Positions 4,388-23,986 of a stretch of DNA of 64,000 nucleotides are shown piece by piece. The DNA is taken from positions 3,567-67,566 of the forward strand of contig JACWML010000003.1 in assembly GCA_015661395.1 (NCBI GenBank), read 5' to 3'. A model generated the notes under the pieces. It searched no databases and had not been told where the DNA came from. It was given only the letters and a program-made list of their open reading frames with translations. Origin of the DNA: Methanomicrobia archaeon. Lineage in GTDB: Archaea > Halobacteriota > Bog-38 > Methanoflorentales > Methanoflorentaceae. The stretch's first letter is position 1; each line of letters begins with the position of its first letter. The position numbers and the translations under genes are program-made.

Positions 4388-5212
4388 TTGAGCGAAAGTC
4401 CCGGAGTTTCAATAGTAATACCGACATCTAACTCGGAAAAAACGTTGTCAAGATGTTTATTAGCGATTGCGAACCAAACTTACGAAAACATTGAGACCAT
4501 CGTTGTTGATGGAGGTTCAACAGATGACACGATGAACATATGCAAGCAATTCGACGTGAATTTTTTGTTAACTGCTAAAGGAAGGACGGCTCAAACCAAT
4601 TACGGGATCACAAACGCACGTGGCACATACATATATCGGGTCGATTCGGATGTTCTTCTTGCTTCAGATAATGTATCTGAGTGCGTCAAGAAATGTGAAG
4701 ACGAAAAATACGATGTGGTTTGCGTCTATTGGGGTCCCGATCCGACAGTTAGCTTCTGGGCCAAGGTAAGGGAGTTAGAGTGGAGTTGTTATAAGGACAC
4801 GCTTTTTCCCCGCGGTGCTAGATTTTTTCGAAAAACTGCTATCATAAGCATAGGGCTATTTAACCCAAACCTCACTTTCGGAGAGGATTACGACGTCTAC
4901 AACAGGCTGGTCAGGCATGACTTTAAGGTAGGTACCATCCAGTCGGAGGGGCTTCACATAGGCGAGCCACGCTCGCTAAATGAGGTCATTGCCGAGCAAT
5001 TTGTTTATGGCAAAACGCTTCACGCGTTCTTAAGAGAGCATGATGAAGGCCTGACTCAAGTGAGCCCAATAAAAAAAGAACTGCTTAAGAACTGGAAAAA
5101 GTTTGTGAGACGCCCAGCCTTAGCTTTAGGCTTCGTCATATATGAGACAGCTTATTATGGGGCAGCTCTCCTAGGATATATCGTCTCCGCTGTAAGCATT
5201 AATCCAAAATGA
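4388..5212 (+). CDS. Glycosyltransferase family 2
   Basis: VSIVIPTSN, IVVDGGSTDDT, VDSD (DxD), GED. Confidence 0.9.
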   Translation: MSESPGVSIVIPTSNSEKTLSRCLLAIANQTYENIETIVVDGGSTDDTMNICKQFDVNFLLTAKGRTAQTNYGITNARGTYIYRVDSDVLLASDNVSECVKKCEDEKYDVVCVYWGPDPTVSFWAKVRELEWSCYKDTLFPRGARFFRKTAIISIGLFNPNLTFGEDYDVYNRLVRHDFKVGTIQSEGLHIGEPRSLNEVIAEQFVYGKTLHAFLREHDEGLTQVSPIKKELLKNWKKFVRRPALALGFVIYETAYYGAALLGYIVSAVSINPK

Positions 5213-6336: not shown

Positions 6337-8518
6337 CCCCTTTCAAATGAACGATTGGGAGATCGGAAGATTCTTCAGGGTAATACTGGGCGTCCAGGTC
6401 CTCGTGTGGGCATGCATCGGTCTCGAGTACTTCAACGTGCCCGTGCCGCTTGTCCGTCCATTGGTTTGCTTCATCTATCTGACGTTTGTGCCAGGAATCA
6501 TACTCCTCCGCGTCCTCAAGGTGCATAGAATCGGCGCGTCTGAGGTAGTAGTGTACAGCGTCGGGTTGAGCCTGTCAGTCTTGATGTTTGGGATGCTCAT
6601 GACCGGCGTCGCACTAGCCCCGTTTGGAATCAAGCCATTTGCAATTGGACCCATCAGTGTCGCGATGAGCATCATCGTGCTGGCCCTGTGTGGAATAAGC
6701 TACGTGCGAGATAGACAGTTTTCCAAGCCGGAATTTTTTGACACGTCTGACATAATTTCGCCGCAGGTGCTGTTTTTGCTGCTAATTCCCTTCCTGGCGA
6801 TATTTGGCACGTACTTGATGAATGCTAACGGTAACAACGTGCTGCAACTAGTCCTATTGGTCATCTTGATGGCTTTTCCAGTCGCCGTCGCACTACGGAT
6901 GCTCCCGCAAAAGTACTACGCGCTGGCAATTTTTGTGATCGCTTTGTCGATACTGTTGCACACGACGTTGATCTCTCCTAACGTATGGGGCGCTGACGTC
7001 AACAGTGAGCTCAGCATATCGAACACAATCATACACGATCAGCTTTGGAATCAAGCGATTCCCACCGCGTACAACTCTATGTTAAGCATTGTCATGTTAG
7101 TCCCCCTGTACTCAATCTTCTTACACCTCAATGCCACTTGGATCTTTAAAATCGTCTTTTCCATTCTCTTCTCGTTTGTTCCGTTAGGACTATTTATCGC
7201 CTACAAAAACCAAACGAATGCAAAAATAGCGTTTTTTGCGAGTTTTCTTTTTCTTTCTTTTTTTGATTTCTACGTCACGTTACCAAGTGCGGCACGGGAG
7301 GAAATAGGTCTGCTCTTTCTAACGCTGCTGCTCGTTATTATTTCGCGCCACGACATAAAAACGCCTTCCATTACGACACTCACTATAATATTTGGCGCCT
7401 CACTCGTGGTCTCACACTACGGAACCACTTACGTTTTCTTGATCTTGATCATCGCCGCTTGGCTCGTGGTGCGGAGCCCGCTAGCAATAAACTTAGGATT
7501 AAGGCAAACAAACGGCTATAAAATTCTTGGGTCCAGCGTACTCTTGCTGTGTGTTCTCGCTTATGCGTGGTACGCCTATGTCTCGAATGGAATAAACTTA
7601 ACGACTGTCGTCAATCTTGGGAACAACATTGTCGGCGCACTGGGCGAAACCTTTGCATCGACTCCGGGGAGCGCGACAAATCAGGTTACTGGCTTCTCTG
7701 GGGCAGCGCTCACTCTGCTTCAAAGTGCTGAGTGGTGCTTGGATCTCGCTGTGATCGCGCTTAGTGCGGCTGGGCTGCTCTATGCTCTACACTCGCTCAG
7801 GCGGGGGATCAAGGGCAATGAACGATTAGGTTTCAACGGGGAATTCGTCGTCATATCTTTGTGCACCTTTGGACTCATCGGCGCCGGCTACGTCGTGCCT
7901 TACCTCGCAAAATCTATTGGGACTGATAGATTTTTCGACATCAGTCTGATCTTCTTGGCCCCGTACGCTATAGTTGGTGGTGCAGTCACTGCCAATGTGG
8001 CATCCCAGTTGCTGCACCGTACTAAACCCACGTGGAGGTTCGGGAGCCGATTTAACTTAGTAGCAGCTTTTTTGGTCGTGTTTCTGCTGTTCAACTCGGC
8101 ATTTATTTACCAAGTACTTAATGAACCTAAACTGGGCAGATTTGCTCTCGACCAAAGTGTTGATTTCTATGTCTACAATAACGGCGAGGTAGCAGCTGCC
8201 AATTGGCTAAGCGGGAATGGTTGCTCCTCTGCGTACAGTGTCTATGTCGACGTATTTAGGGCCCCTCTGTTAGGATCAGTGAACTTAGCGCCCCAAAACC
8301 AAACGGTCAACGTTCTCAGCGGCGATTACGACATAAACACGCACCATTATCCCGGCCCCGATTACCTCTTTGAAGGGACTTATAACATCCAGACCTCAGA
8401 GTTCCTTCTCCGCAACTCATCGTACGGGGTTGAGTACGAACACGATCCTTACTCTGGATTGCAAATGTCCCAAATCTATGACAGCGGCGCTGCGCGAGTT
8501 CTCGTTGTGACTAGGTGA
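6323..8518 (+). CDS. DUF2206-like polytopic membrane protein (putative GT-C/polymerase)
   Basis: 731 aa with many TM helices; FVPG..LRVLK, YSVGLSLS, VVSHYGT motifs typical of archaeal DUF2206 proteins; glycan-cluster context. Confidence 0.7.
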   Translation: MLIRNPFQMNDWEIGRFFRVILGVQVLVWACIGLEYFNVPVPLVRPLVCFIYLTFVPGIILLRVLKVHRIGASEVVVYSVGLSLSVLMFGMLMTGVALAPFGIKPFAIGPISVAMSIIVLALCGISYVRDRQFSKPEFFDTSDIISPQVLFLLLIPFLAIFGTYLMNANGNNVLQLVLLVILMAFPVAVALRMLPQKYYALAIFVIALSILLHTTLISPNVWGADVNSELSISNTIIHDQLWNQAIPTAYNSMLSIVMLVPLYSIFLHLNATWIFKIVFSILFSFVPLGLFIAYKNQTNAKIAFFASFLFLSFFDFYVTLPSAAREEIGLLFLTLLLVIISRHDIKTPSITTLTIIFGASLVVSHYGTTYVFLILIIAAWLVVRSPLAINLGLRQTNGYKILGSSVLLLCVLAYAWYAYVSNGINLTTVVNLGNNIVGALGETFASTPGSATNQVTGFSGAALTLLQSAEWCLDLAVIALSAAGLLYALHSLRRGIKGNERLGFNGEFVVISLCTFGLIGAGYVVPYLAKSIGTDRFFDISLIFLAPYAIVGGAVTANVASQLLHRTKPTWRFGSRFNLVAAFLVVFLLFNSAFIYQVLNEPKLGRFALDQSVDFYVYNNGEVAAANWLSGNGCSSAYSVYVDVFRAPLLGSVNLAPQNQTVNVLSGDYDINTHHYPGPDYLFEGTYNIQTSEFLLRNSSYGVEYEHDPYSGLQMSQIYDSGAARVLVVTR

Positions 8519-8522
8519 CGCA

Positions 8523-9599
8523 ATGAGAGTAGCTATTATTCCAACTAGCACGTGGACGGGAGAACGGGCTTATGGCGACTATCTGATTCCTGGCTTAAGA
8601 AACAAAGGAATCGAAGTTGACCTCATAGACACGAGGTACTTTCAAACCCCCCATAGAAAAATCTGGGTGGGCAGCTTGTTGCTAAAAAAAACGTTGATGC
8701 ATAAAGGCCTCGTAATAGTGCATAACTTGGACAACCTCGGCCCTTATCTAATCAAGCGCTCCTTAGAACACGTGAGGCCGATTTCCACTGTTCATGACAT
8801 CGCGCCGCTTATTCTGCCTTATATGTCTGATTGGGTAATTAAAGCCGATTTCGGTCTCATACTCCCACGGCTGCTGAATAACAGCAGCCTAATAATCGTA
8901 CCAAGCCAGTCAACCAAGGGTGATATCATATCGAAGTTTTCAATTGGTGAAAATAAGATCGCAATCATCGAACAGGGGGTTGACACGTCTTTCTTTTATC
9001 CAAGGCATTTCAATCAACAAGTGTTACGAAAATATCACATACCAAACCAGTATTTGTTATATGCCGGGACTGATAGCGCGCGAAAGAACTTAGTGAACCT
9101 AATACTGGGCTATAGCAAAATATGTGACGAAATCAGCCACGATTTAGTTCTGGTTGGCATGATAAACCGAGATTACGTTGAACGAGTAGTCACAAGAGTT
9201 GTTCACGCGGCAGAAGCACAACAACACATTTCTCAGAGGATACATTTAGTTGGATACGTCGAGCGCGCTGATCTGCCGTACATTTACAGCTCTGCAAGCG
9301 CTTTGGTGCTTCCCTCTCTTTATGAGGGATTCGGCATGCCCCCATTAGAAGCGATGGCGTGCGGGACGATAGCCGTCGTCTCCAACAACAGCTCTTTACG
9401 AGAGATTGTGGATGGTTCTGCCATACTTATCAACGACCCCCTAGATCCTGAAGAGATCTCAGCCAGAATTCTACAGGCGCTTGAAAAAGACGATGAAAGC
9501 GACTTGAAACAGCGCGGACTTAGCCAAGCGCAAAAATACACGTGGGAGAATACGGTACAAAAAACTATCGCCGCCTATGACAAGGTAGCACAAATGTAA
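8523..9599 (+). CDS. Glycosyltransferase family 4 (MtfB/mannosyltransferase-like)
   Basis: TVHDIAP, RKNL, PSLYEGFGMPPLEAMACG. Confidence 0.9.
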   Translation: MRVAIIPTSTWTGERAYGDYLIPGLRNKGIEVDLIDTRYFQTPHRKIWVGSLLLKKTLMHKGLVIVHNLDNLGPYLIKRSLEHVRPISTVHDIAPLILPYMSDWVIKADFGLILPRLLNNSSLIIVPSQSTKGDIISKFSIGENKIAIIEQGVDTSFFYPRHFNQQVLRKYHIPNQYLLYAGTDSARKNLVNLILGYSKICDEISHDLVLVGMINRDYVERVVTRVVHAAEAQQHISQRIHLVGYVERADLPYIYSSASALVLPSLYEGFGMPPLEAMACGTIAVVSNNSSLREIVDGSAILINDPLDPEEISARILQALEKDDESDLKQRGLSQAQKYTWENTVQKTIAAYDKVAQM

Positions 9600-9962
9600 C
9601 TGCTTTTTCACGCGTTAGCCATTAAATAGCCTTTTAAGCCACATATAGCGAGATTCCTATGTTGTCACGCTTAATGCGTTGTTTGCTGCCGAAATTCTCA
9701 ACGTAACAGAACGCCCACACATCCCTTCTCTTGACTGCGCCTGATGCTTTTGAAAGCGAGGCGTGCGGTTTCGGTTGACAGTGCAGTGCTTCCACTATCG
9801 ATGGGATAAGTCTTCTCTGTGGCAGATCTGTGCTGTCCGGCACCTATTCTCGGAAGCCGTCGACGTGGCCGATCACGACTCGCTCTGATCTTACTGCTCC
9901 TCTTGATGCTAGAGGGCCGGGTACTAATTTTAAGCAACGGGGGCCTCAGTTTCGAGTCTGGC

Positions 9963-11123
9963 TTAGGCTACTTCACTATCGTCGCCTCTGAATAGTTTAT
10001 CGTACGAGGTCACAATGTGATCCCACGAATACGCTGCGATTGCCCTTTTGTATACCTCGGAGCGAAACTCCGCAGACCCTCGGCCATTCTTTTCTATCAA
10101 GGTCACTAGATCGCTCAAGCCGATGCTATTCGAGAAGTAGTATGCGAAGCGACTGCACACCTCTCTGTTGAAAACGTTATCGTGACATACGATAAGATTC
10201 TTGGAAATCATTGCCTCCAAGAGACTCGGATTGGTGCCGCCTACTGAGTGCCCGTGGATATACGCAAGGCAGTGTTGCCGCAACATCCCAAGCACGTCAG
10301 CGTCGTATATCGCTCCCAAAAAGAATATATTGGCTGATTTGCCGTTAGATACACCCCGATACACTCGATGTCGGTATTTATCGCTCGTAAAATCGCCGAC
10401 GATGACCAACGGATAGTTCGGTCTCGCCTTAACGAATCCGTCGACGATCATGTGGATGTTGTTTTCAGGCTCCAAGCGTGCTATGAGCAACCAGTAATTG
10501 CCCTTTGCTATCGTGCCGCTGGCGGTCTTTCCACGGAAGTAGCTGCGTAGTTTAGTCCCATCCCACGACTGAGGTTTCTGCTCGGAAACGCCGTACGGGA
10601 TGTAGCAAGTCTTGGCGCAATGTCTCTCGCCAATGCATCGCTTCAGCTGTTCATTGTCAACAACGATTTTAGAAGCGAGATTAAGTGAGACAGCGAAGAG
10701 TAATATGATGATGCTCCGTTCCACCACGGTGTATTTGGCGCGCTTCCACTCTAAGCCATCCATGTTCACCACAACCTGCCTCTTCAGCAATCTGGGGATC
10801 AGCAGGGACGGCCCACCGTAGATTCCAAGCACGTAAATGACGTCGCAAATTAGAGAATAGCGCGCGATGAAGTAGCTATCGTATAGAAGCTCGAATGCTT
10901 TTCTTACCGTGTAGTTGGCGGGCGGTTTGAGCGCGAAGTAATCGAGGGTAGCCCCTGTGTCATCAGCGATGTGCTTTCCGCTAGCCGGTTTCTCACAGCT
11001 GCAACGAACGCCGTACCCTTTCTGCACGAGGCGCGGCACGAGATCTGCAAGCATTCGCTCATATCCTCCATAATTGTTTATGCCTCGTGCACCGACGATT
11101 CCAACGGTCCTCCTCCGACGCAC
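9963..11123 (-). CDS. DUF1972-domain GT4 glycosyltransferase (rhamnosyltransferase-like)
   Basis: VGARGINNYGGYE, NMDGLEWKRAKY, ARLEPENN, YIHGHSVGGTNPSLLEAM. Confidence 0.9.
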   Translation of the reverse strand: MRRRRTVGIVGARGINNYGGYERMLADLVPRLVQKGYGVRCSCEKPASGKHIADDTGATLDYFALKPPANYTVRKAFELLYDSYFIARYSLICDVIYVLGIYGGPSLLIPRLLKRQVVVNMDGLEWKRAKYTVVERSIIILLFAVSLNLASKIVVDNEQLKRCIGERHCAKTCYIPYGVSEQKPQSWDGTKLRSYFRGKTASGTIAKGNYWLLIARLEPENNIHMIVDGFVKARPNYPLVIVGDFTSDKYRHRVYRGVSNGKSANIFFLGAIYDADVLGMLRQHCLAYIHGHSVGGTNPSLLEAMISKNLIVCHDNVFNREVCSRFAYYFSNSIGLSDLVTLIEKNGRGSAEFRSEVYKRAIAAYSWDHIVTSYDKLFRGDDSEVA

Positions 11124-11128
11124 GCTAA

Positions 11129-11671
11129 TCAGCTCGTCTCATGAATTTCACACTTCATCGCTTTGGTGCTTGACGTCGCGAGCGTGCCCGCCGTTCTGTT
11201 GTGCCCGCTGAAAACGTCGCTTGCACAAAAAAGACCTATTTTGACGCCGTCCCCTAGTGACGACAGCTTCGGTCGATCCGCTCGAGGACGGTAAGTGATC
11301 GGGATTTCCGCGATGCGCAAACCGTTCCTCACGCATTCTGCGAACACCTGCTTCAATTTCAACGACAACGCGCCGCCTTCGTCTTTGTTTATCTCTTTTT
11401 GTCGCACCACCTTAAAAAGAGGCAAAAGTTGGGCAGAGAATAGCAGATTTCCAGTAAACGGGTTCGTATCGCCGCCTGTGTAGGGTGTGTCTGGGATGAG
11501 CTTTTTGAACTCGACACACACATCGAGTACGAGTTCATGGGCGAATTCCTGACTATATTTAGAAATCACCACCCCTTTTCCAGCCGCCGATACCTGAGCT
11601 AACTCCTCTAAAAGGCGAGGTCTCAGCAATTTATAGTAGTTTCTGCTTTCGCGATCTTCCATATTGCTCAC
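11129..11671 (-). pseudogene. Chimeric relic: N-terminal fragment of an ATC-hydrolase-like protein joined to the C-terminal fragment of a DPM1-like GT2
   Basis: The EFKKLIPDTPYTGGDTNPFTGNL segment is followed by (FEIEA)VFAECVRNGLRIAEIPITYRPRADRPKLSSLGDGVKIGLF. Indels near 11350 and in a T6 run near 11230. Confidence 0.6.
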
Positions 11672-11752
11672 TTCGGGAGTACGTGAAAGACTTCGGAGTC
11701 AAGCGACCATAGCATTGACGATCGAGCATTTGTTCGTATTTGGGCTAAAAAA

Positions 11753-11971
11753 ATGCTTCGGCTCGCGTATCTGAACATTGACTCAAACTCATGCCGTGTA
11801 CCGCTATCACAGTCTGTCAACTGGATTGTCGCAGCACTCGTAACGTTCACCGTCATCACAGCGTATAGCTATTGCATCAATGCCGAAGAGCATATGCTCG
11901 TCGCAGCTTTCAGAGAACATTACGCGGCGTACGTGAAGCATACGTGGAGACTTCTCCGATTTGTATGGTGA
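11753..11971 (+). pseudogene. Fragment of an isoprenylcysteine carboxyl methyltransferase (ICMT/PEMT) family protein
   Basis: C-terminal EEHMLVAAFREHYAAYVKHTWRLL motif; N-terminal portion absent. Confidence 0.6.
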
Positions 11972-12005
11972 AGACGTGCGATACTGTGCGAGTGCCTGCA
12001 TCGAA

Positions 12006-12363: not shown

Positions 12364-13134
12364 GTGGCAATGTGCAGGTATGGTGGATGTTCAGAGACGG
12401 CACGCGGCGACTCCGCATGGTGCATACTTCATCTCGATTTCCCCAAGGAAGATGATCCGGAGTTCACGCGTATACGGGATGAAAAGCAGCTCAAGACGAA
12501 AGAAAAGATACAAGGCGGTGATCTCAATTTTGAGGGCACTAACATCTATGGCGTCGACGCATCGGAGCTCAGCATCCCGGTACAGAATAATGCAATCTTT
12601 AAGAATGCAACCATAAAAGGGCGTGTTAAGTTTGAACGAACGAAGATAGAACAGGACGCCTCATTTGAAGGAGCGAAGATAGAGAAGAACGCCTCGTTTG
12701 CCGGGGCGGAGATAGGAGGGGAAGCTCGGTTTGAAGAGGCGGAGATTGGAGGAGACGCCACGTTCGCCGGGGTGGAGATCGGGGGGGAGGCTTGGTTTAA
12801 ACGAGCGAAGATAGGAGGATATGCCACGTTTGCCGGGGCGCAGATAGGAGGAAACGCTTGTTTTGGAACGGTGGAGATAGGAGGAGACGCTTGGTTTGGA
12901 GGGGCGGAGATAGGAGGAGACGCTCGGTTTGAAGAGGCGGAGATAGGAGGGGAAGCTTGGTTTAGAGGAGCGCAGATAGCAGGCGACGTTCGGTTTGAAG
13001 AGGCGGAAATTGCAGGGGACATTCGGTTTGAAGAGGCGGAAATTGCAGGGGACGTTCGCCTTCAAGGAGCGAAGATAGGGGGGGAAGCTTGTTTTGAAGG
13101 AGCGGAGATAGGAGGGACGCTGAATTTGGTCTGA
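12364..13134 (+). CDS. Pentapeptide-type repeat (beta-solenoid) protein with 11-aa repeats
   Basis: N-terminal C-x4-C...WCILH, then about 15 repeats of GG[ED]AxFxxAxI (33-bp period, ~12650-13120). Confidence 0.75.
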   Translation: MAMCRYGGCSETARGDSAWCILHLDFPKEDDPEFTRIRDEKQLKTKEKIQGGDLNFEGTNIYGVDASELSIPVQNNAIFKNATIKGRVKFERTKIEQDASFEGAKIEKNASFAGAEIGGEARFEEAEIGGDATFAGVEIGGEAWFKRAKIGGYATFAGAQIGGNACFGTVEIGGDAWFGGAEIGGDARFEEAEIGGEAWFRGAQIAGDVRFEEAEIAGDIRFEEAEIAGDVRLQGAKIGGEACFEGAEIGGTLNLV

Positions 13135-13186
13135 TGGCAGTACGAGCGACGCGTTGTGTAAGTCGTCAATTTGACGCTCTAACGCC

Positions 13187-13567
13187 TCATACTCGCGCCA
13201 AAGACGTTAAGTTCCCAAAGAAGAGGTTTCCCATGCCAAGGCCGAGCAGAGTCAATACAACTGCAAACGCGATGAGGATGATGACTAGGACTACAAGTGC
13301 GATAATTTCAGCGATTGCGAGAACGAATCCAAACCGTATGCCAAATCCGATGAGCCCTCCAAAGCCGAGATGCATCAACTCATCGAGTGCGTTACGCGGT
13401 GGCTCGGGTAGCTCGACGCTTGCACGATACGACGAGGTAGTTGACTCCTGAGGTGCAGGTATCGGCGTATTCTGCGGTAGTAGTTCGCCACATCATCTAC
13501 AAAACTCAGCATTTGCGTAGTTAATGGCCATACATTTCTCACACATCGTGCGGTCTGCTTCTTCCAC
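13187..13567 (-). pseudogene. Zinc-ribbon plus transmembrane protein with an in-frame TGA
   Basis: MCEKCMAINYANAEFCR*CGELLP...GFGGLIGFGIRFG plus a TM helix; TGA at 13493-13495. Confidence 0.6.
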
Positions 13568-13596
13568 GTTACCAGATCCTGCGCATTATTTTCGGC

Positions 13597-14346
13597 TTAA
13601 CGGTCTTCTTTTTTCGGGCCGAATAATCGAGACCAAAAACCGACTTTAGGAGCAGGTAAGCGTAACGTCAGCAATTCGACTTGCTTCTGCATCGTCTCCT
13701 TATCGGCTTTCAATTCAAGCGAGTGGCCCTTCTCAACTTGTAGTGCCACTTCGAGGCTTGTTTTGTCCTTTTCCAGGAGCTCAATGCGGTGCTGCAGGCC
13801 AGTGACAACAACGTTTTTCGATGCTTCTGATTCCCGCAGCTTTTCCATCAAAGAGCGGCTGCGCTCTTCAGATTCCTTCAGATTAGCATCGAGCTTCTGC
13901 GTAACACTTTCAAGTTCTTCAAGCGAGCTCTCGAGCTGTTGGATACTCGCAGAACGGTCTGCCTTAATCTGTCGCAGTTGCTTCTCACAGTCGGCGCGGA
14001 TTAGCTGTGTCTCAGCATCATGCTCAGCGAAAAGCTTCTCAATCCTTTTCTCGTGTTCGTCGCGCACGCGTTGCACTATACTTGCGGTTTCCGCACGCTG
14101 ATTTTGGGCTTGTTTTTCGTATTCCGCGCGTTGCAGCTGCCGCGTTTCTTCAGAACTAGCTCGCAGTGCTTCCATTTCACGTCCATAGTCGGCTAGTGTT
14201 TTTTTCTCTGCGTAGTGCTCTTCGACGATCTGGGCCAGGAACGCCGAGAGCGATTTACCCTCAGTTGCCGCTTGCTCTTTGAGAAGCGATGCCAAGTCGG
14301 ACGTTAATGCAATCGAATAACGAGTTTTTCCGCTTTCCTGCGCCAT
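13597..14346 (-). CDS. Ribbon-helix-helix DNA-binding, long coiled-coil protein with a C-terminal amphipathic helix
   Basis: TRYSIALTSDLASLLKEQAATEGKSLSAFLAQIVEEHY (CopG/Arc-type RHH), ~180 aa coiled coil, C-terminal KVGFWSRLFG. RBS GAGGGG upstream. Confidence 0.75.
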   Translation of the reverse strand: MAQESGKTRYSIALTSDLASLLKEQAATEGKSLSAFLAQIVEEHYAEKKTLADYGREMEALRASSEETRQLQRAEYEKQAQNQRAETASIVQRVRDEHEKRIEKLFAEHDAETQLIRADCEKQLRQIKADRSASIQQLESSLEELESVTQKLDANLKESEERSRSLMEKLRESEASKNVVVTGLQHRIELLEKDKTSLEVALQVEKGHSLELKADKETMQKQVELLTLRLPAPKVGFWSRLFGPKKEDR

Positions 14347-14376
14347 TTACCCCTCTTGGTTCGGTCTTTTTCAATC

Positions 14377-14552
14377 TGTTGCAACGTTGCTGCAAATATA
14401 CCCTCAATTGCAGCACAATGCGCCTGGTATGCTACATGCTTGTCGCACCATTAAAGGCTGCCGAAATGATACGAGATAGTGTGCTGCACACATGCTGCAG
14501 ATTCCAGTTGATTATGCTGCAGAATGACTAAAAGTGCTGCATCGGTGCTGTA
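14377..14552. repeat. Phased array of TGCTGCA-like heptamers overlapping the RHH gene promoter
   Basis: Heptamers start at 14377, 14388, 14409 (inverted), 14430, 14441, 14482, 14493, 14515, 14535 and 14546. Spacings are 11, 21, 21, 11, 41, 11, 22, 20, 11. Confidence 0.75.
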
Positions 14553-15022
14553 GTTCACCGCGTCTAGCAACGTTTTTCAGCGATGCTTCCACGCGATCCT
14601 TTTGACCATCGTTGCTGCCGAAAGAAGAGGAGCAGAAACGTGTAGAAGTTTCAAGAACGAACTCGCATGCTATGCCATACCATTGCACGATGGAGATAAT
14701 GATTAGCTTTTGCTAGAACGAATTCTCTGCGTGTTTCGAGTCTGACGTCTGTCCAATACCACACATAAGCAGCATGCATGTTGCCGGGAAGCTGATGCTT
14801 CTAGTGTTTGCAATCGGCGCGGCTGACGGCAACAAAGTCGTTGAACGCGCATTAGAGTATAGGCTGCCGCACGAGTTTTCGGCTCGCGAGTACCACATAC
14901 CTAAAAATATATCAAGGGATCTCGTTTTTGACTAAGCGAGACTCCGAACAGCAAAATCCCCGCACGCTGAATGCGGAGCGATGTTAGTCGCCGCTGAACT
15001 ATGGAAAGGCGACACATTTTTA

Positions 15023-15055
15023 AAAAGTGGCGCACTTTTGGCGCACTTTTGGCAC
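15023..15055. repeat. Short tandem 11-bp repeat TGGCGCACTTT x2 plus a partial copy, overlapping the inverted repeat AAAAGTG-GCG-CACTTTT
   Basis: Read directly from the sequence upstream of ilvD. Confidence 0.7.
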
Positions 15056-15107
15056 GATCTTAGCAGCGCACTCATTTTTATAGCTTCAGCGATCATTCTT
15101 TAGGCAT

Positions 15108-16778
15108 ATGGAACTAAGGAGCAAGGAGATAACGAGGGGGGTGACTCGCGCACCCCAAAGGGCCCTCTTGAAAGCCTTGGGCGTGGGAGACGAGGATCTC
15201 GAACGGCCGTTTGTCGGCATCGCCAACGCATGGAACGAGATCGTTCCCGGTCACCTTCATCTGCGCGATCTCGCCGAGTTTGTTAAAAAAGGGATACACT
15301 TGGCTGGTGGCATTGCGTTCGAGTTCGGCACCATTGGCATCTGCGACGGCATCGCCATGGGGCACTCCGGCATGCGCTATGCGCTCCCGTCCCGTGAAAA
15401 CATCGCCGACTCCGTTGAGCTCATGGCGCAGGCGCACCAGTTTGACGGCTTGGTCATGGTGGGGTCGTGCGACAAGATCGTTCCCGGGATGTTGATGGCG
15501 GCGCTGCGGATAAACGTGCCTACAATGGTAGTGACCGGGGGGCCGATGCGAGCGGGGTACTACGAAGGCACCGACCTCACGCTCGTCTCGACGTTTGAGG
15601 GGGTCGGCTGTGTCCAGGCGGGCACCATGACCGAAGCGCACCTTGAGGAGCTCGTTAGCCGGGCGTGTCCCGGGTGCGGCAGCTGCCAGGGCCTGTACAC
15701 TGCCAACACCATGGCCTGTATGACCGAGATGCTGGGCCTCTCGCTTCCCCATTGTGCGACGACGCCAGCTGTTGATGCCCGAAGGAGGCGCATTGCCGAG
15801 GCCACCGGGAAGCGAATCGTCGACCTCATCGTGAACGGGGTCACGCCGCGTGACATCGTGACCGAGGCATCGTTTCGGAACGCGATCGTCCTCGACATGC
15901 TCATAGGCGGCTCGACGAATACGGCGTTGCACCTCCCTGCAATCGCGCACGAGGCGGGCATATCGCTCCCGCTCACGCTTTTTGACGAACTGAGTGCACA
16001 GACGCCGCACATCACATCCCTGAATCCGAGCGGCCCGTATACCATGAGCGACCTTGACGCCGCTGGCGGCGTCCCCGGCGTCATGAAACGCGCTCGGACG
16101 CTACTACGCAACGAAACGACCTGCTCGGGCAAGAGCGTTTACGAGATCGCCGATGAGGCACACATCCGTGACGATGCAATCATACGCCCCCTCGACGATC
16201 CGGTGCACGCGACAGGCGGCATCACGGTGCTTTTCGGGAACCTTGCTCCGGACGGCGCTATCGTCAAAAGCGCCGGCGTGAGCGACGACATGCTCCGCTA
16301 TACGGGAAAAGCGCGCGTATTTAACTCCGAAGATGAGGCGATGCGGGCCATTCTGGCCGGATCGGTGAGCGAAGGGCAGGTTGTGGTCGTGCGCTATGAG
16401 GGGCCCAGAGGCGGACCAGGAATGCCCGAAATGCTTGCGCCAACAGCTGCGATATCTGGAATGGGGCTGAGGGTTCCCCTCATTACAGATGGTCGTTTCT
16501 CGGGCGGCACTAGGGGCGCTGCGATCGGACACATCTCACCAGAGGCGGCTGAGGGGGGGCCCTTGGCGCTTTTGCACGACGGGGACGAGATTACCATTGA
16601 CATACCGAACCACCTGCTGGCCGTGCAGCTGGCAGACGATGTTCTTGTGGCCAGAAAGGCAACGTGGACGCCGGTGCGAAAAGACGTCGGCGGCTACTTG
16701 AAACGATATGCCGCTGCGGTGAGTTCGGCAAGCAACGGAGCGATACTGCGCGCGCCGCAGGAAACACGGGAGCCGTGA
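15108..16778 (+). CDS. ilvD: Dihydroxy-acid dehydratase
   Basis: ICDGIAMGH, CDKIVPG, CQGLYTANTM, GGSTN, TDGRFSGG. Confidence 0.97.
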   Translation: MELRSKEITRGVTRAPQRALLKALGVGDEDLERPFVGIANAWNEIVPGHLHLRDLAEFVKKGIHLAGGIAFEFGTIGICDGIAMGHSGMRYALPSRENIADSVELMAQAHQFDGLVMVGSCDKIVPGMLMAALRINVPTMVVTGGPMRAGYYEGTDLTLVSTFEGVGCVQAGTMTEAHLEELVSRACPGCGSCQGLYTANTMACMTEMLGLSLPHCATTPAVDARRRRIAEATGKRIVDLIVNGVTPRDIVTEASFRNAIVLDMLIGGSTNTALHLPAIAHEAGISLPLTLFDELSAQTPHITSLNPSGPYTMSDLDAAGGVPGVMKRARTLLRNETTCSGKSVYEIADEAHIRDDAIIRPLDDPVHATGGITVLFGNLAPDGAIVKSAGVSDDMLRYTGKARVFNSEDEAMRAILAGSVSEGQVVVVRYEGPRGGPGMPEMLAPTAAISGMGLRVPLITDGRFSGGTRGAAIGHISPEAAEGGPLALLHDGDEITIDIPNHLLAVQLADDVLVARKATWTPVRKDVGGYLKRYAAAVSSASNGAILRAPQETREP

Positions 16779-16792
16779 TCCTAGCGCGCCGC

Positions 16793-18712
16793 CTAGCTGG
16801 CCTCGTACACGTACGCGTCGCCGAATCTCGTCACTGGCGTGTAACCGTTTGATCTGAGGTAACTGTCCAAGGCGGTTCGATTGCTGATCCCGAAGTTTTC
16901 CGACAGGATCGCGTACTTGTAAAAGTCTCTGTCGCTTTGAATGGCGGCCTGTAACGCAGCCGTGCTGTTCGACACCTCGTCTCGGTACGCCATCGGTGAG
17001 GAATCAAACGCAGACGGGTTTGTGACATAGAACAGCGCCTCGCGCTGCGAGGAGCTCGCGTTCGCAAACGGGTCGTTCGGGTTGGGGGGGGCGAAAAACG
17101 CCAGTGTCGTATTGTTGCTGGGGATCTGGCCCACGTACCGTATCGCGTTGAAGTCGTCTTGTCCGATCACCGACTGATACTTGTCGGTGCTTATCGCCCC
17201 CGCCGCATTGGTCAAAATGATAAGCGCAATCAGCACGACAGCGACAATTCTGCCCGGGGAGATAAGCGCAGATCTGCGTCCGAGAGATCGCTCGATTATG
17301 GAGACCCCGAGACCCGCAGCAGGTATGAGAACCGCTTGGGCATACGCCACGCCGCGCCCGAGGAAGATTTCAGCGGTCGTCGGAGCAAACGAAAAGTACA
17401 CGGTTGACAGGATCCAGCCGGCAAATATCCCTAGGATGAACGCGAGCAAGACGAGATGAGAGAGCTCCCACTCTTTGGTCTCGACCAGAGAGCCTGCGAG
17501 ACCTACGACGGCGAGCGCTGCTATCAGCGGCGTTACGTAGAGGAGGATGTACGTCGGATCGGGGTACATTAGTTGGAGCACAATCAGCGGGAGAACCGAC
17601 TGCATCGCGAACGGCGCCGCGCTGGTGGTGACGAGGGCCGGAGTGAAGCTCGTCGGCACGCCGTATACGAGGAAGCGCCAGGCAAAGAGCATCAGCCCGA
17701 GCACATACGTTGGAATAGAGGCAACCGTCGTGAGTGTGTTCTGCCGTTTCATGAGCTGGGCAATTACCACGAACGCGAATATGAAGGGCGTGTAGACCCC
17801 GTAGAGGATGTGAATGTCAATGGAGAGCCCCAGCACAAACGCGCCGGCTAGGAATGAGCTCGCCTCTCGTGAAGCACAGAGATAGAGGCCAAAAAACAAG
17901 AAATAGGTACCGACGACCTGCATCATCGAGATGTTCGTCCTCCAGAAGAGTTCAAACAGCGGCGACATTGAGCCCCATAAGAAGAGCGCGACGACTTTGC
18001 CGGACAGGCTCACGCCGAGTCGCTCCAAAACGGCGAGGAGCATTATGGAGGCCAGAACGCCCGCCGCAGGTCCGAACCAGATCGCCATGTCGACGACCGA
18101 CGCGTTACCGATCATCGCAAACGATCCCATTGTGAACTCGAAGCTTCGCTCGCGGATAATGTCACTAGCGCCGGCTGCCAGGAATGAAGGTATGCCCGTG
18201 AAGCCCGTGTGCACGAAGTAGGCCGCGCGGGTTGCCCAGTAAAGCGGATCAAAGTAGGGAATCGTGCCTACCGTCGCCGGATACCACAGCCGTGTAACAG
18301 CCGCGAAAAGGAGCATCGCGACGATTATGATATTCTCAGGCTTGAGCAGGGCGGATGCATTGATCGGTGCCTGCTCGCGGTTCAAGGCAAGGGCGAAAAT
18401 GAACATGAGGGTCGTCCAAAGAAAGAGCGGCCCAACGATGGTGAGTGGATTCCCCGGTATCAGCAGGGCCGTGTACACGATTTCGAGTATGGCGAGGAAG
18501 ACGACGCTAAAACCAATCGCCGTGCCGATCCTGCCTGCGACGCTTTGGTCTCCCAGAATGACGAGCGACGTGAAATACCCCGGAAAAAAAAGGAGAACAG
18601 CGCCAGCACAGAAGACCTGAACAAGACCCCCAATGCCTATCGCGAGCGGTATGCACAGCGCCAGAAAAATCAAATAGGCGACACTAATGCGCCTGAGACT
18701 CTGAAAATTCAT
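16793..18712 (-). CDS. Polytopic membrane protein, GT-C-like (AglB/PMT-like luminal FDP motif)
   Basis: About 14 TM helices, PYFDPLYW after the N-terminal TMs, and a soluble C-terminal domain with N-x-S/T sequons. Confidence 0.6.
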   Translation of the reverse strand: MNFQSLRRISVAYLIFLALCIPLAIGIGGLVQVFCAGAVLLFFPGYFTSLVILGDQSVAGRIGTAIGFSVVFLAILEIVYTALLIPGNPLTIVGPLFLWTTLMFIFALALNREQAPINASALLKPENIIIVAMLLFAAVTRLWYPATVGTIPYFDPLYWATRAAYFVHTGFTGIPSFLAAGASDIIRERSFEFTMGSFAMIGNASVVDMAIWFGPAAGVLASIMLLAVLERLGVSLSGKVVALFLWGSMSPLFELFWRTNISMMQVVGTYFLFFGLYLCASREASSFLAGAFVLGLSIDIHILYGVYTPFIFAFVVIAQLMKRQNTLTTVASIPTYVLGLMLFAWRFLVYGVPTSFTPALVTTSAAPFAMQSVLPLIVLQLMYPDPTYILLYVTPLIAALAVVGLAGSLVETKEWELSHLVLLAFILGIFAGWILSTVYFSFAPTTAEIFLGRGVAYAQAVLIPAAGLGVSIIERSLGRRSALISPGRIVAVVLIALIILTNAAGAISTDKYQSVIGQDDFNAIRYVGQIPSNNTTLAFFAPPNPNDPFANASSSQREALFYVTNPSAFDSSPMAYRDEVSNSTAALQAAIQSDRDFYKYAILSENFGISNRTALDSYLRSNGYTPVTRFGDAYVYEAS

Positions 18713-18899
18713 ATTTGGGCCTTCTATACTTTTTCGATTATATATGCTTTATCAAGTATGAGGTGTTACACGTTTACCGCTTGCTGGGGTTTGGTGCGGC
18801 CGATTTGAGCGCCTCGTGGCCTACGAATGCGTAACCGAGCGCGAAGGCGAAGGCGAAGGCGCCGCTTTTTACCCACGCTCTGCAGGGCCGGACGCACCG

Positions 18900-20327
18900 A
18901 TGACCACTAACAGAAAGATCTTCAAAAATACCGCAGCATTAGCCTCCGCGGACATATTTACGCGTCTGATGCGCTTCGGGCTAGCCGTCGTCATAGCTAG
19001 GACGCTCGGTCCTGCGGGGTACGGTGTGTATGCGTTTGCATTCTCGTTTGCGGAGGTCTATGGCGTCATTTCAGATTTTGGCATGAGTAACCTCATAATC
19101 CGCGATACCTCAAGGAAGAAGGAGTACCTCGCTCGTTATGTTGGAAACATTTTATTTGTTGAAACAGCGCTTTCCTTGATCGCCTACGGCTTCCTGTTCG
19201 TTCTCGTCGGCGCAATGAACCTGCCTCAGGAAAAAGCCGTTATTGTCTATATCGCCGTTATCTCCTACGTTCTGACGGCTCTCGCGCAGATCGTCCGAGC
19301 GACGTTCAAAGCCCACGAGAGGATGGAGTATGACGCGACGCTAAACGTCATTCAGCAGAGTGTAACCGTCATCCTTGGCATCAGCGTGCTATATTTCGGT
19401 TACGGATTGATCGCGCTCGCCGTGGTGTTCGTCTTAGGAAGCTTGATCAACCTCATTGCAAGCCTCGCGCTTGTTTCAGTAAAGTTCACGCGGCCCAAGT
19501 TTAGGCTAGACCGACGCTTTTTGACGTATTTGGTCAAGGAGGTCCCCTCTTTCGGACTGATCGTATTCTTCTCGCTTATCTACTACAAGATAAGCACGCT
19601 GCTTCTGTCATTTATCCAAGGGGATGCTGCGACCGGATGGTTCAACGCCTCGTACGCCATGGCGGTGTCGCTCACCTTTCTACCGGCAGCATTCATGGGG
19701 GCGCTATTCCCCGTAATATCGACGCTCCACGTCTCATCGAAAGATCTTGCAAAGACCGTTTATAACGAGTCATTTCGCTATATGGTTATCTTGGGGCTTC
19801 CGCTTGCATTCGGCACGACCGTGCTCGCAGATAAGGTCATCAACATCATTTATGGGGCGCCATTCCACAACTCAATCGTCGTCTTACAGATCGTCATCTG
19901 GTCCGTCTCAATCCTATTTCTCAATTTCGTGCTCACCACGACGCTGACGTCGATAAATCTGCAGCGCGTCGTTATGTATGCCACGGGACTCGCTGTCACC
20001 GTCAACATCATCCTCAACCTCCTCGTTATCCCGGGATATAGCTACGTGGGCGCAAGCTACGTGATGATAGCGACAGAGCTCACCACTTTTTCTGTCTGCT
20101 TCTACTACGCTTCGAAAAATTTGTGCTACATTCGGCTGCACCGGCTTCTGCTCAAACCGCTCGTAGGGTCATTCGTCATGGCGGTCGTCGTGTATTATCT
20201 GCGGCCGATCAACCTGTTCGTCATAGTTGGGGTTGCGGTCTGGGTGTATTTCGCTACCCTCATCGCACTGAGGACGTTCACGAAGCAAGACATAAGCGTC
20301 ATTAAGAGCATAATCGGCAGAACGTGA
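18900..20327 (+). CDS. Wzx/RfbX-type oligosaccharide flippase
   Basis: RKIFKNT...ARTLGPAGYG...DFGMS and 12-14 TM helices. Start placed at ATG 18900 (the ORF track starts at 18816). Confidence 0.92.
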   Translation: MTTNRKIFKNTAALASADIFTRLMRFGLAVVIARTLGPAGYGVYAFAFSFAEVYGVISDFGMSNLIIRDTSRKKEYLARYVGNILFVETALSLIAYGFLFVLVGAMNLPQEKAVIVYIAVISYVLTALAQIVRATFKAHERMEYDATLNVIQQSVTVILGISVLYFGYGLIALAVVFVLGSLINLIASLALVSVKFTRPKFRLDRRFLTYLVKEVPSFGLIVFFSLIYYKISTLLLSFIQGDAATGWFNASYAMAVSLTFLPAAFMGALFPVISTLHVSSKDLAKTVYNESFRYMVILGLPLAFGTTVLADKVINIIYGAPFHNSIVVLQIVIWSVSILFLNFVLTTTLTSINLQRVVMYATGLAVTVNIILNLLVIPGYSYVGASYVMIATELTTFSVCFYYASKNLCYIRLHRLLLKPLVGSFVMAVVVYYLRPINLFVIVGVAVWVYFATLIALRTFTKQDISVIKSIIGRT

Positions 20328-20331
20328 GCTG

Positions 20332-21522
20332 ATGTCGCGCAGCAAAAAAAGGGACGACACAAGAGGTGCTCGTGTGAGAATAGCACTATCGACCTTCGAA
20401 TACGACCGGAACCTCATCGGCGGTGCGGGCATCTACGCGCTGGAGCTAAGTCGATGGTTGGCACCACTCTGCCAGCTCACCGTCCATAGCTGCGACGCAT
20501 ATCAGACTCCGCCAGACGCCTTCGCTGCCGCTTGGTTTGGAGCGGGAGTGCCAAACGTGCGGTACCGGCAGCTGCCTCGACCCTTACGAGGTCACGGGGT
20601 TGCGGCCTTTTATTACTACGCGCTCGCTCATGACCCATTCGAAGGGTGCGACGTGCATCTGACTAACGACCTCTCACAGGGGATGGCAGTTCATCGCAAA
20701 GCTCCCCTCGTGCAGATTCTGCACCACCTACCCTCGTCAGAGCTGAAGCAGGTGCCACTGTCAAGATCACGCATCGCAATCACATTGCTTGCCGCGCTCG
20801 AAAAGCGCGCACTAAAACGGCCTCAAGCGATTATCTGCGACAGCAGTGACACAATGGCGCAGGCGCTCGCGCGATATCCGGAGCACGCCGAGAAGCTGAG
20901 AGTCATACCTAACGGTGTTGACGTGAACCTTTTCACACCTGCCGACACACCGACCGAGGGCGCTGTGACCGATAAACCGCTCGTTGCGTGTGTCGCGCGG
21001 GGACTTGAGGCGAGAAAGGGTATCGCGTACTTGATCGAGGCGCTCGCGGCGGCCCAGCGTGTCACTCCGGTTGAACTCATCATCATAGGCAAAGACTCGG
21101 AACGATTGAAGCAGCGGATGCTGGCACACGCACGCGCGCTCGGTGTGATCGACGTGGTCACGTTTGTCGATTCCGTATCACTGCACGATCTTATCGCGCT
21201 CTATCAGCGCGCCACCGTGACGGTGGTGCCCTCACTGCTCGAGGGATTTAGCAGGCCGGCGCTCGAATCGATGGCGTGCGGAACGCCCGTGATCGGAACG
21301 GCGGTTGGAGCCATCCCAGAACTTATCGACGAAAGCTCCGGGGTGCTCGTCTCTCCCGGAGACGCAGGCGCTCTCGCTGCGGCGCTGATCGATTTACTCC
21401 AGGATGACAGGCGAGTGAAGCGGATGGGGGCTGCCGCACGGCGACGTGCGGTTACGCTTTTTTCCTGGGATAATGTTGCGCAGCGCGTGCTCAGCGTGTG
21501 CGAGGAGGTGACCTTAGCGTGA
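20332..21522 (+). CDS. Glycosyltransferase family 4
   Basis: VIPNGVD, RKG, EGFSRPALESMACG. Confidence 0.9.
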   Translation: MSRSKKRDDTRGARVRIALSTFEYDRNLIGGAGIYALELSRWLAPLCQLTVHSCDAYQTPPDAFAAAWFGAGVPNVRYRQLPRPLRGHGVAAFYYYALAHDPFEGCDVHLTNDLSQGMAVHRKAPLVQILHHLPSSELKQVPLSRSRIAITLLAALEKRALKRPQAIICDSSDTMAQALARYPEHAEKLRVIPNGVDVNLFTPADTPTEGAVTDKPLVACVARGLEARKGIAYLIEALAAAQRVTPVELIIIGKDSERLKQRMLAHARALGVIDVVTFVDSVSLHDLIALYQRATVTVVPSLLEGFSRPALESMACGTPVIGTAVGAIPELIDESSGVLVSPGDAGALAAALIDLLQDDRRVKRMGAAARRRAVTLFSWDNVAQRVLSVCEEVTLA

Positions 21523-22711
21523 CCTCTTCATATATTTCTTCGAGCTTCTGGACGTGGACGTCCAAGTCAAAGGTTCTGGCCGATGTCCGCGCGTTTTTGC
21601 TCATTTCGCTAAGGAGCTTCGAATCAGACGAGAGCATTTGTAGAAGCGAAGTGAGCGCCGCAACGTCACCGGGCGGAAACAAGAAACCGTTGTACCCGTC
21701 TTCGATGAGCTCAGGAATTGCGCCTGTCCGGCTTCCTATGACCGCGATCCCGTGCTGATAGTATTCGGGTATCACGAGTCCGAACGTCTCTGCGTAGATG
21801 GACGGCACGACAGCCACATCGGCGATACTGTAAAGCTGCCGCAGCGTATCAGGCGCTAAAAAACCATAGAAGACAATTCGCTCGTCATCCCGCGCATCGC
21901 GCTGGAAACGCGCCCCGTCACTGCCTTGACCAACGACGTGCAGTCGCGCATTTTTGAGATCTAAACCTTTGACGGATTCGATGAGGGAGTGCACCCCCTT
22001 GTGTTTTCCCAGACGGCCGACGTAGAGTATGTCGAACGTGCCATTGTTCACCTTTGCGACGGGCTCGCTTTCAGGTATGCCAAGGGGCAGTTTCAGCTTT
22101 CGTGTGTCTGCGAACAGCCCGAAGCCGGAAAGGGTGTTAAGCACAAAGTCAGACGGGGCAATAACGACAGCAGGATCGATTCGTTTGTAAAACCAGCGAT
22201 AGACCCGACACGGGCTGCGGGCATTCACGCACGAGGCATTAGCTCTCGTGAGCAGGGTCGTCTTGGGACAAATGAGGGTGTAGTCGTGCACGGTGTGAAC
22301 CGCGGGAATGTCAAGATCCTTGGCGGCACTAAAAACAGATGCCGACAACCCGCTGAAATTGTGCACGTGCACGAGGTCTGGCCGCTCACGCTTCAGTGCG
22401 TCCTTTATGAAGCTGTACGTGTGTGGATTCCAGATATCGAATGCGTGCCAGAGTGGCTTGATAAAGCCGGGTTTGCGCGAATAGTAATAGTTCGAGTAAA
22501 GATTTAACGGGTAAAATCGGTAAATGGCGTCTTTTCGCTCGCCTACTTTGTCGCGAGTTGACGATCCGTTTCGGCCAAAGGGGGCGGCTGTTATCACAGA
22601 GATATCGTGACGGTCGCTGAGCCTCTCTGAGATGTGGGAGACGTACAGCTCTGCGCCACCGTGAATGTAGGGCGGGTAAAGGTTAGAGACCATGCAGATT
22701 TTCACGAACAC
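21491..22711 (-). CDS. Glycosyltransferase family 4
   Basis: SNLYPPYIHGGAE, HTVHDY, HKG, ETFGLVIPE. Confidence 0.9.
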   Translation of the reverse strand: MFVKICMVSNLYPPYIHGGAELYVSHISERLSDRHDISVITAAPFGRNGSSTRDKVGERKDAIYRFYPLNLYSNYYYSRKPGFIKPLWHAFDIWNPHTYSFIKDALKRERPDLVHVHNFSGLSASVFSAAKDLDIPAVHTVHDYTLICPKTTLLTRANASCVNARSPCRVYRWFYKRIDPAVVIAPSDFVLNTLSGFGLFADTRKLKLPLGIPESEPVAKVNNGTFDILYVGRLGKHKGVHSLIESVKGLDLKNARLHVVGQGSDGARFQRDARDDERIVFYGFLAPDTLRQLYSIADVAVVPSIYAETFGLVIPEYYQHGIAVIGSRTGAIPELIEDGYNGFLFPPGDVAALTSLLQMLSSDSKLLSEMSKNARTSARTFDLDVHVQKLEEIYEEVTLRSPPRTR

Positions 22712-22775
22712 AACCTCGAAATCTACGATGCAAAAGAGCCGATCGGATGCTTCAGTCTATTCTTTTCAACTGAGC

Positions 22776-23897: not shown

Positions 23898-23986
23898 ACG
23901 GGGTTTCACTCGCGCCTGTTCAGGAATAAGCTGTAGCCGCCACGTGACCGGCACAGGAAGAAGTGGTACGAAGTCATGGCCTTCGA

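Follow-up and report, generated by a model that had tools for sequence, protein, structure and literature searches.

The stretch of DNA under study, referred to here as the window, encompasses 64,000 nucleotides of contig JACWML010000003.1 in the genome assembly GCA_015661395.1 (G000), which belongs to a Methanomicrobia archaeon of the Methanoflorentaceae. The assembly encodes methyl-coenzyme M reductase, and the organism is therefore regarded as a methanogen. Within the window, a gene on the minus strand (13597-14346) encodes a protein of 249 residues in which a putative ribbon-helix-helix (RHH) head is followed by a long predicted coiled coil and a conserved C-terminal tail. Upstream of this gene lies an array of ten short heptamers (14377-14552), and its neighbors are genes for a pentapeptide-repeat protein, a small zinc-ribbon membrane protein and ilvD. 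Together, the array and the RHH coiled-coil protein point to a self-contained DNA-holding device of a kind that has been described so far in bacteria only. The central elements of a first-pass annotation of this DNA, namely a centromere-like array, a single cognate RHH coiled-coil protein and a missing motor gene, all stand.

The repeated heptamer is a palindrome, TGC-W-GCA (TGCWGCA), and the copy that had been described as inverted differs from the others in the central base alone. The ten copies are arranged five and five around a 34-bp spacer (14448-14481), an arrangement that is kept in relatives. In the proximal half-array (14377-14447) the heptamers start at 14377, 14388, 14409, 14430 and 14441, with an 11-bp pair at each end and a lone site between them, 21 bp from either. 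The distal half-array (14482-14552), with starts at 14482, 14493, 14515, 14535 and 14546, mirrors this spacing and repeats the proximal half at a distance of 105-106 bp (repeat family D1, spacings 105 and 53). Each half-array can be read as pair, single and pair, with steps of 11 and 20-22 bp, and there are four 11-bp pairs in all. Exact TGCTGCA or TGCAGCA is found in six copies, at 14388, 14409 (inverted), 14482, 14493, 14515 and 14535, and one-base variants are found at 14377, 14430 and 14546. The copy at 14441 is two bases off, and the aligned position is a perfect TGCAGCA in four of six orthologous regions (those of genomes G013, G001, G017 and G002). Every one of the ten copies that had been claimed is found where it was placed. 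A weak eleventh copy, proposed at 14613, is also present, yet it lies beyond the conserved block that ends at about 14557 and is probably a chance occurrence.

The total number of exact heptamers in the window is unremarkable, at 14, of which six are in the array, against an expected 10.5 +/- 3.4. Genome-wide, 453 exact heptamers occur in 2,164,979 bp, and the count across the genome that had been proposed as a check singles out the array as the only cluster, the sole place with at least four exact copies per 200 bp (six here and three in the runner-up). Sites with at most one mismatch are found at 3.35 per kb genome-wide, which gives an expectation of 0.6 in 180 bp, as against ten counted, although one of these ten, at 14518, is an overlap artefact. 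Well-matched pairs of sites 11 bp apart number seven in the genome; three are in the array and the remaining four are isolated and at chance level. For the ten sites listed in the first-pass annotation, the resultant length of the phasing is 0.97 at 10.5-10.55 bp, a coherence matched by 0 of 100,000 random placements. The unbiased set (sites with one mismatch or none) gives 0.80-0.82 and a null fraction of 0.0015. The best helical period is 10.55 bp and all ten sites share one helical face, in agreement with the phasing of about 10.5 bp that had been claimed.

About 105 nt upstream of the ATG, the central spacer holds a TATA-like element, CCATTAAAGG at 14449-14458 (CCTTTAATGG on the gene strand). 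This element is kept in seven of seven aligned sequences, including that of an orthologue with only 56% protein identity, and a similar CTTTAAT(A/G)G is found at about -100 to -110 in loci that belong to other specificity classes. On this sequence evidence the spacer element is a candidate core promoter. A second TATA candidate, AAATAT, falls between the heptamers that start at 14388 and 14409, at about 14395-14401. The array had been said to overlap the likely TATA box, and it does surround the likely promoter; the box then in mind (AAATAT at about 14395) is, however, only one candidate, and the spacer element is conserved across more classes. Between the array and the ATG, a leader (14347-14376, minus strand) that forms part of the conserved block carries the Shine-Dalgarno-like AGAGGGG at 14352-14358 on the gene strand. 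Autoregulation is the simplest first function for the array, because bound protein would flank or cover the core promoter with either TATA element, and the protein probably does control its own gene in this way, presumably by repression.

The head of the protein comprises residues 1-46 (14209-14346, minus strand) and includes the beta-strand RYSIAL at residues 10-15. The Pfam family RHH_1 scores 15.3 bits on the window's protein, below the cut-off of 20.5, and the paralogues P0030 and P0051 pass this cut-off at 23.8 and 24.7 bits, respectively. The best sequence match of the family profile in the PDB is CopG, with an E-value of 0.015. An AlphaFold2 model of residues 1-58 displays an extended N-terminus followed by helices at residues 16-28 and 33-46, a beta-alpha-alpha order, and the leading Foldseek matches that were inspected are the RHH proteins Arc, CopG, AtaR, MatP and omega (probability 0.6-1.0, template-modeling score 0.5-0.85), with E-values that are weak, the best being 0.056. 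When the protein is predicted as a homodimer, the contacts of the head extend over residues 6-44, with residues 6-16 paired in the manner of an RHH dimer, and i-to-i contacts follow a heptad pattern through residues 47-230. The homodimer scores 0.54, whereas none of three controls scores above 0.00. Among proteins with solved structures, 20 of 30 one-chain pairs reach the mark that it passes, as does 1 of 23 single chains. At least 96% of contacts are common to the three runs, with a predicted local distance difference test value for the partner of at least 82, although such a pass may reflect likeness to solved RHH dimers and coiled coils rather than independent evidence. According to these models, the head is a dimerizing ribbon-helix-helix fold of the CopG/Arc/MetJ type.

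Residues 47-230 (13657-14208, minus strand) are predicted to form a parallel, in-register, two-stranded coiled coil, a stalk of about 180 residues that would measure about 27 nm if each residue adds the standard rise of about 0.15 nm. The stalk is followed by a conserved tail, PAPKVGFWSRLFGPKKEDR, at residues 231-249 (13600-13656, minus strand), which is nearly invariant in the family and combines a proline linker with a short stretch of aromatic and hydrophobic residues and a basic end. The last 50 or so residues of the coiled coil and this 19-residue tail are the best-conserved part of the family (alignments A1 and A2), and the tail lies outside the predicted dimer interface. As a candidate anchor peptide, the tail could attach the protein to the membrane or to a partner, and the C-terminal module may be a general anchoring domain. 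The hydrophobic moment of the tail is moderate, at 0.31-0.32; published values, which are on another scale, are 0.245 for RocS and 0.424 for MinD. The C-terminal 70 or so residues, tail included, also form the end of the proteins at loci L029, L030, L031 and L037 (114-138 residues) and L032 (189 residues). The N-termini of this set, L029-L032 and L037, are not RHH-like by eye, and Pfam finds no RHH domain in L031 and L032, the two that were scanned. In a separate metagenomic protein, P0070 (550 residues), a MoxR-type AAA_3 ATPase is joined to an RHH head with part of the coiled coil, which represents either a real fusion or a gene-calling artefact.

The protein family is present in 16 of 23 genomes of one taxonomic family and in none of 17 genomes from twelve other families of the phylum, and 156 matches to it are found among 1.84 billion representative proteins. 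The relatives with the same gene are uncultured metagenome-assembled genomes from bog, fen and peat that are labeled Halobacteriota, Methanobacteriota or Methanomicrobia. Literature searches found no published description of the family, and one paralogue carries the precomputed family PF28422. The ESM Atlas returned no match above the chance range, and a search with only the C-terminal part produced no lead to DUF536; a single weak row (0.78) led to bacterial clusters that combine a NikA-like RHH with DUF536. For comparison of the upstream regions, 104 family loci were taken from genome and metagenome collections. The N-terminus is included in 81 of these, and the other 23 were dropped as their match did not start within the first 9 residues. 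The loci finally compared were the 42 distinct ones with at least 250 bp of upstream sequence, L085 having been dropped from the 43 distinct N-termini with its 185 bp.

The array is kept in six orthologues. An alignment of seven sequences reveals that the heptamers and the central spacer are conserved and that other positions drift. In the 700 bp upstream of the orthologues, exact TGCWGCA is found seven times in each of G010, G013 and G001, four times in G017, twice in G008 and five times in G002, and it is the G002 orthologue that retains the array at just 56% protein identity. The gene, the array and the gene downstream make up a 1.4-kb block of 85-92% nucleotide identity that has sharp ends at about 13160 and 14557. 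More widely, some heptamer is present at least four times in the 350 bp upstream of the gene at 36 of the 42 loci. Against an order-1 Markov null for the top heptamer count, which is inflated by low-complexity words, 19 of the 42 loci reach p <= 0.01. The motif search upstream of homologs that had been suggested for this gene has in this way uncovered phased arrays in three specificity classes.

The three classes are defined by the beta-strand of the head. The R-S-x class (21 loci) pairs with GCTGCA/GCAGCA, at about 5-7 copies per locus, the R-N-T class (17 loci) with ATACAC, at 6.1 per locus and 50-fold over the other classes, and the K-T-T class (4 loci) with ATACAG(C), at 7.8 per locus and 97-fold over the other classes. 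In all three, the distances between sites in the same orientation peak at 11, 21, 32, 42-43, 53 and 63-64 bp. The proportion of such distances that fall within 1 bp of multiples of 10.6 bp is 79/107 for R-S-x, 37/42 for R-N-T and 19/23 for K-T-T, where the chance share is 0.19. The arrays of relatives span up to about 330 bp. The array had been claimed as dedicated to the RHH coiled-coil gene, and this view gains from its retention in orthologues and from the switch of motif with beta-strand in paralogues.

The protein tree divides into two well-supported clades, and each of them contains both R-N-T heads with ATACAC arrays and Ser-type heads with GCWGC arrays. Because the pairing recurs in this way, head and array evidently stay together in inheritance and exchange, irrespective of the lineage from which the stalk derives. 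The stalk-coding region of the window's gene (13627-14134) has 89% nucleotide identity to that of the R-N-T paralogues L018 (in G017) and L019 (in G008), whereas the head and the array differ. A stalk this similar between different classes of head and array suggests an exchange of the two by recombination, as a single cassette. Two paralogues with different heads and arrays are present in each of G017 and G008, and such differing specificity within one genome is as expected if cross-talk is avoided. Since orthologues keep the array and the pairing of motif and head recurs in separate branches, the protein very probably binds its own array.

The explanation that we favor, to which as a whole we would assign a probability of about 0.5, is that the array acts as the private docking site of the adjacent protein. 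Dimers of the RHH head would each insert a beta-ribbon into the major groove at a palindromic heptamer, and neighbors 11 bp apart would be occupied by two dimers together, in the manner of the operators of Arc and CopG. With the sites on one face, about ten stalks of some 27 nm would point one way from about 175 bp of DNA, and one-face phasing is what this projecting-stalk geometry needs. Loading of the sites that flank or overlap the promoter would shut the gene off. The clustered C-terminal tails would then engage a cellular anchor and fix the locus in place without a dedicated nucleoside triphosphatase (NTPase). The anchor would most simply be the membrane, contacted through many weak aromatic-basic peptides, or else a partner protein. 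That the protein anchors or positions DNA is put forward tentatively, at somewhat less than even odds, from its architecture, and any role in inheritance would be a further extrapolation. By analogy, the family may represent an RHH-headed archaeal version of tethers that are built from a head, a coiled coil and an anchor, and segregation or tethering would be its putative role. A broader view, which is more doubtful, sees in the family archaeal DNA-anchoring cassettes that are free of NTPases and specify themselves. In these, head and one-faced array would co-diversify into mutually exclusive groups, similar to incompatibility groups, and would be shuffled as a unit onto stalk and tail, with the tail fastening the locus (in some species an origin) to the envelope or to a division or positioning structure.

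The closest parallels in architecture are RocS of Streptococcus pneumoniae, RicO of Staphylococcus aureus and the Par protein of plasmid pSK1, in which, as described, a DNA-binding head is combined with a coiled coil and with a short anchor peptide at the C-terminus. These proteins are likewise described as lacking a dedicated NTPase, and their anchor as needing multivalency. The coiled-coil dimer of RocS is reported to be parallel, and its C-terminal helix to hold the membrane only with oligomerization. RicO is reported to anchor origins to the membrane, and pSK1 Par is said to be a partition system of just one protein. The earlier comparison of the window's protein with pSK1 Par is apt in terms of architecture. 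Par reportedly acts on repeats upstream of its own gene. There are, however, clear differences. The head of the three bacterial proteins is a MerR-type winged helix, whereas here it appears to be an RHH fold. The parallel coiled-coil dimer between head and anchor, by contrast, has a counterpart here, predicted at residues 47-230. Where the bacterial proteins have a C-terminal amphipathic membrane helix, the family has a conserved aromatic-basic tail at the extreme C-terminus, which is a candidate anchor. Finally, the bacterial proteins act at scattered chromosomal sites, whereas the system considered here is archaeal and has one dedicated array of ten sites.

The arrangement of the array is closest to that of parC, the site bound by ParR in the type II system of plasmid R1. 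ParR is described as an RHH centromere binder with ten repeats in two sets around its own promoter, and the array here is also five and five around a TATA-like spacer, the putative promoter. The R1 parC repeats are said to be contiguous 11-bp units, whereas the array here consists of 7-bp cores spaced by 11, 21 and 41 bp, all of them on one helical face. ParR is small and, as described, works with the actin-like ParM of the same operon, for which there is no gene here. The ParR/parC complex both represses transcription and forms the centromere, according to a review and the title of Dam and Gerdes (1994). The parC site is further described as tandem repeats with the DNA wrapped around a ParR helix, and both ParR and omega are reported to wrap or spiral along their sites, unlike the one-face projection proposed here.

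Omega (pSM19035), ParG (TP228) and the archaeal SegB are described as RHH dimers on arrays of short repeats that overlap promoters. Omega is reported to accept direct and inverted heptads, and SegB to be an archaeal site-specific partner in chromosome segregation. These three act with a ParA-type ATPase encoded next door (delta, ParF and SegA, respectively), none of which is adjacent here, and they have neither a long coiled coil nor a conserved C-terminal tail. MatP of Escherichia coli is among the fold matches of the head. It is an RHH DNA-binding protein with a coiled coil that links specific chromosomal sites to a cellular structure, but it differs in having about two dozen matS sites dispersed in the terminus, an extra helical bundle, a short coiled coil and no private promoter array. 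Arc and CopG provide the best fold and sequence matches to the head. Their operators contain two subsites about one helical turn apart with a dimer on each, like the 11-bp pairs here, but these proteins have only some 45-53 residues and a single operator, and are without stalk, tail or extended array.

The absence of an adjacent ParA or ParM gene, which had been part of the original proposal, holds at the window's locus and at most family loci. No ParA/SegA-type gene is found on the window's contig, the CbiA-family matches in G000 being on contigs C38, C30, C35, C57 and C32, and no actin-like ParM gene is found among the neighbors of the window's locus. Across the family, a deviant Walker A motif is found at 7 of 104 loci (359,849 bp searched). 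Six of the seven carry the same reading frame, and the one that was scanned, at L050, is of the NifH family; at the seventh, a true ParA is found beside a mere remnant of the tail, with an integrase gene adjacent. At L064 (1325-6085, in G014) a ParA gene, a 237-residue gene not assigned to a family, an isolated tail remnant and a tyrosine-recombinase gene are found together, probably as parts of a mobile element in which a family member was formerly present.

An association with replication is seen at a few loci. Family members that carry an array of their own are found next to an orthologous Orc1/Cdc6 paralogue in three genomes, which represent two genera; the arrangement is tandem at L043 (G022) and at L044/L056 (G015) and divergent at L055 (G014). 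Directly upstream of these orc1 genes, inverted repeats of 23-48 nt with G-runs surround an AT-rich stretch of 108-174 nt (L043:10083-10236, L056:3994-4263 and L055:1977-2170), as is typical of archaeal origins. These repeats, which are distinct from the heptamer array, can be read as origin recognition boxes, and the regions look like a secondary replication origin. The link to origins holds for part of the family only. There is no orc1 gene on the window's contig, and G000 is without the Orc1/Cdc6 paralogue seen at these loci. A replication origin at the window's own locus was considered and rejected, as it has no origin box, no AT-rich stretch and no orc1 gene on the contig.

Several points weigh against the private docking site and the tether built upon it. 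The 42 loci are kin, and counts across them are not independent, and at 6 of the 42 no heptamer reaches four exact copies. A search of G000 at up to 5 substitutions gives no match to the origin boxes, no AT-rich unwinding stretch is found at the window's locus, and in closed relatives the module of the window's type is 80 kb (G010) and 255 kb (G017) away from the main orc1. A lone chromosomal tether point at such a site brings no obvious benefit, and the ten operators could merely set a sharp autoregulatory threshold. The membrane affinity of the tail amounts to a resemblance, given its moderate hydrophobic moment. Finally, DUF536 (PF04394), the domain that RocS and Par have in common ahead of the C-terminal helix, was not detected in the window's protein at E <= 0.1 or in the paralogues at E <= 1, and a search of all of G000 at E <= 10 found only an unrelated 16-residue frame on contig C67. 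Because DUF536 is not detected, the family is, as far as its sequence goes, not a member of the Par/RocS family.

With regard to its setting, the contig is chromosomal, and ilvD (15108-16778) and the genes beyond it are syntenic in three relatives at 91-94% identity. In those three relatives an ABC transporter is located between the array and ilvD, and it is absent from the window. G010 (L022:7538-8975) has two extra genes beside the transporter, DNA methylase-like and restriction-type by eye, which the window also lacks. As the window is without the transporter and without these two genes, the interval between array and ilvD appears to be a hotspot for insertion and deletion. It also holds an exact tandem duplication of an 11-mer, TGGCGCACTTT, at 15028-15049, about 60 bp upstream of ilvD, which may be a regulatory site. 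On the left, the flanking glycosyltransferase region is variable and has a lower GC content, and the many genes for glycosyltransferases and polysaccharide export on both sides suggest that the module marks the border of a variable cell-surface island. GC content climbs across the module from 0.46-0.50 (1-12000) to 0.52-0.59 (14000-30000). No integrase, initiator or tRNA gene is found near the array, the window's only tRNA gene being at 52608, and an Rfam scan of 13000-15500 gave two sub-threshold chance matches only.

The small zinc-ribbon gene downstream (13187-13567, minus strand, from six-frame translation) encodes a C-terminal membrane segment and lies within the conserved 1.4-kb block. 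Its zinc-ribbon Pfam matches are weak and under the cut-offs. In the window the gene is interrupted by an in-frame TGA (13493-13495), at a position where intact orthologues have Arg inside the second CxxC; it is intact, at 126 residues, in G013 and G017 and broken in G010. No such gene is found downstream of the paralogous copies examined. The pentapeptide-repeat protein (12364-13134, plus strand, 256 residues; Pentapeptide_3, E 1.6e-33) is encoded outside the conserved block and has a cysteine-rich N-terminus and a weak bactofilin-like match.

The same observations have to be weighed under other explanations. It could be argued that the protein is an ordinary autorepressor with a very long operator, whose stalk and tail have structural or regulatory roles unrelated to the holding of DNA. 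RHH proteins typically autorepress, the sites flank or overlap both candidate TATA elements, and the array holds three of the seven well-matched 11-bp pairs of the genome, the other four being isolated; moreover, the occurrence of the same tail module on proteins without an RHH head indicates that the tail has a role of its own. However, ten sites in 175 bp, and arrays of up to about 330 bp in relatives, are more than repression needs, strict one-face phasing is held across three specificity classes, and three family members adjoin origins. Repression is, in any case, compatible with a docking site, since repression and centromere function are reported to coincide in ParR, omega and ParG. Overall, we consider a simple autorepressor possible but rather unlikely.

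A toxin-antitoxin-like pair, in which the RHH protein is the antitoxin and repressor and the downstream zinc-ribbon membrane protein the toxin, would account for the presence of an RHH gene and a small membrane protein gene in one conserved block. It would also fit with fold matches that include the RHH antitoxins AtaR, KacA and MazE, and with weak HicB-like and BrnA-like antitoxin matches in a paralogue. Nevertheless, the downstream gene is broken in G000 and G010 where the RHH gene is intact, and it is absent from the other classes examined. A coiled coil of 180 residues with a conserved tail is no feature of antitoxins, nor do toxin-antitoxin operators typically consist of ten phased sites, all of which makes such a pair very improbable. 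Even less probable is that the repeats are the iteron field of a replication origin or belong to what is left of an integrated plasmid or virus. Short repeats phased at 11, 21-22 and 32 bp are iteron-like, the left flank is variable with a lower GC, some members adjoin Orc1/Cdc6 genes and the tail remnant at L064 is found beside ParA and integrase genes. Yet the window's locus is without initiator, integrase, tRNA gene and AT-rich unwinding stretch, its ilvD side is syntenic in three relatives, and at the Orc1-linked loci the features of an origin are in box repeats separate from the heptamer array.

The positioning and inheritance of euryarchaeal chromosomes are largely unexplained, and SegAB of the Sulfolobales is the sole archaeal system that our literature searches turned up. 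The family described here is a compact and testable candidate for such a role, with one gene, an array of about 175 bp and a predictable pairing of head with motif. Its main limit is its confinement to uncultured peatland methanogens, hence the need for a heterologous host in any test. If the anchoring is true, then the tethering of DNA to a surface without an NTPase arose independently in bacteria and archaea on different DNA-binding folds. If the broader cassette reading is also true, RocS, RicO and pSK1 Par would have their first counterpart in archaea, one that uses another DNA-binding fold, and the family would come with a readable code in which Ser, Asn or Thr in the central beta-strand specifies GCWGC, ACAC or ACAGC, respectively. 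If the anchoring fails, the family would still provide a clean natural data set on how the RHH beta-strand reads DNA.

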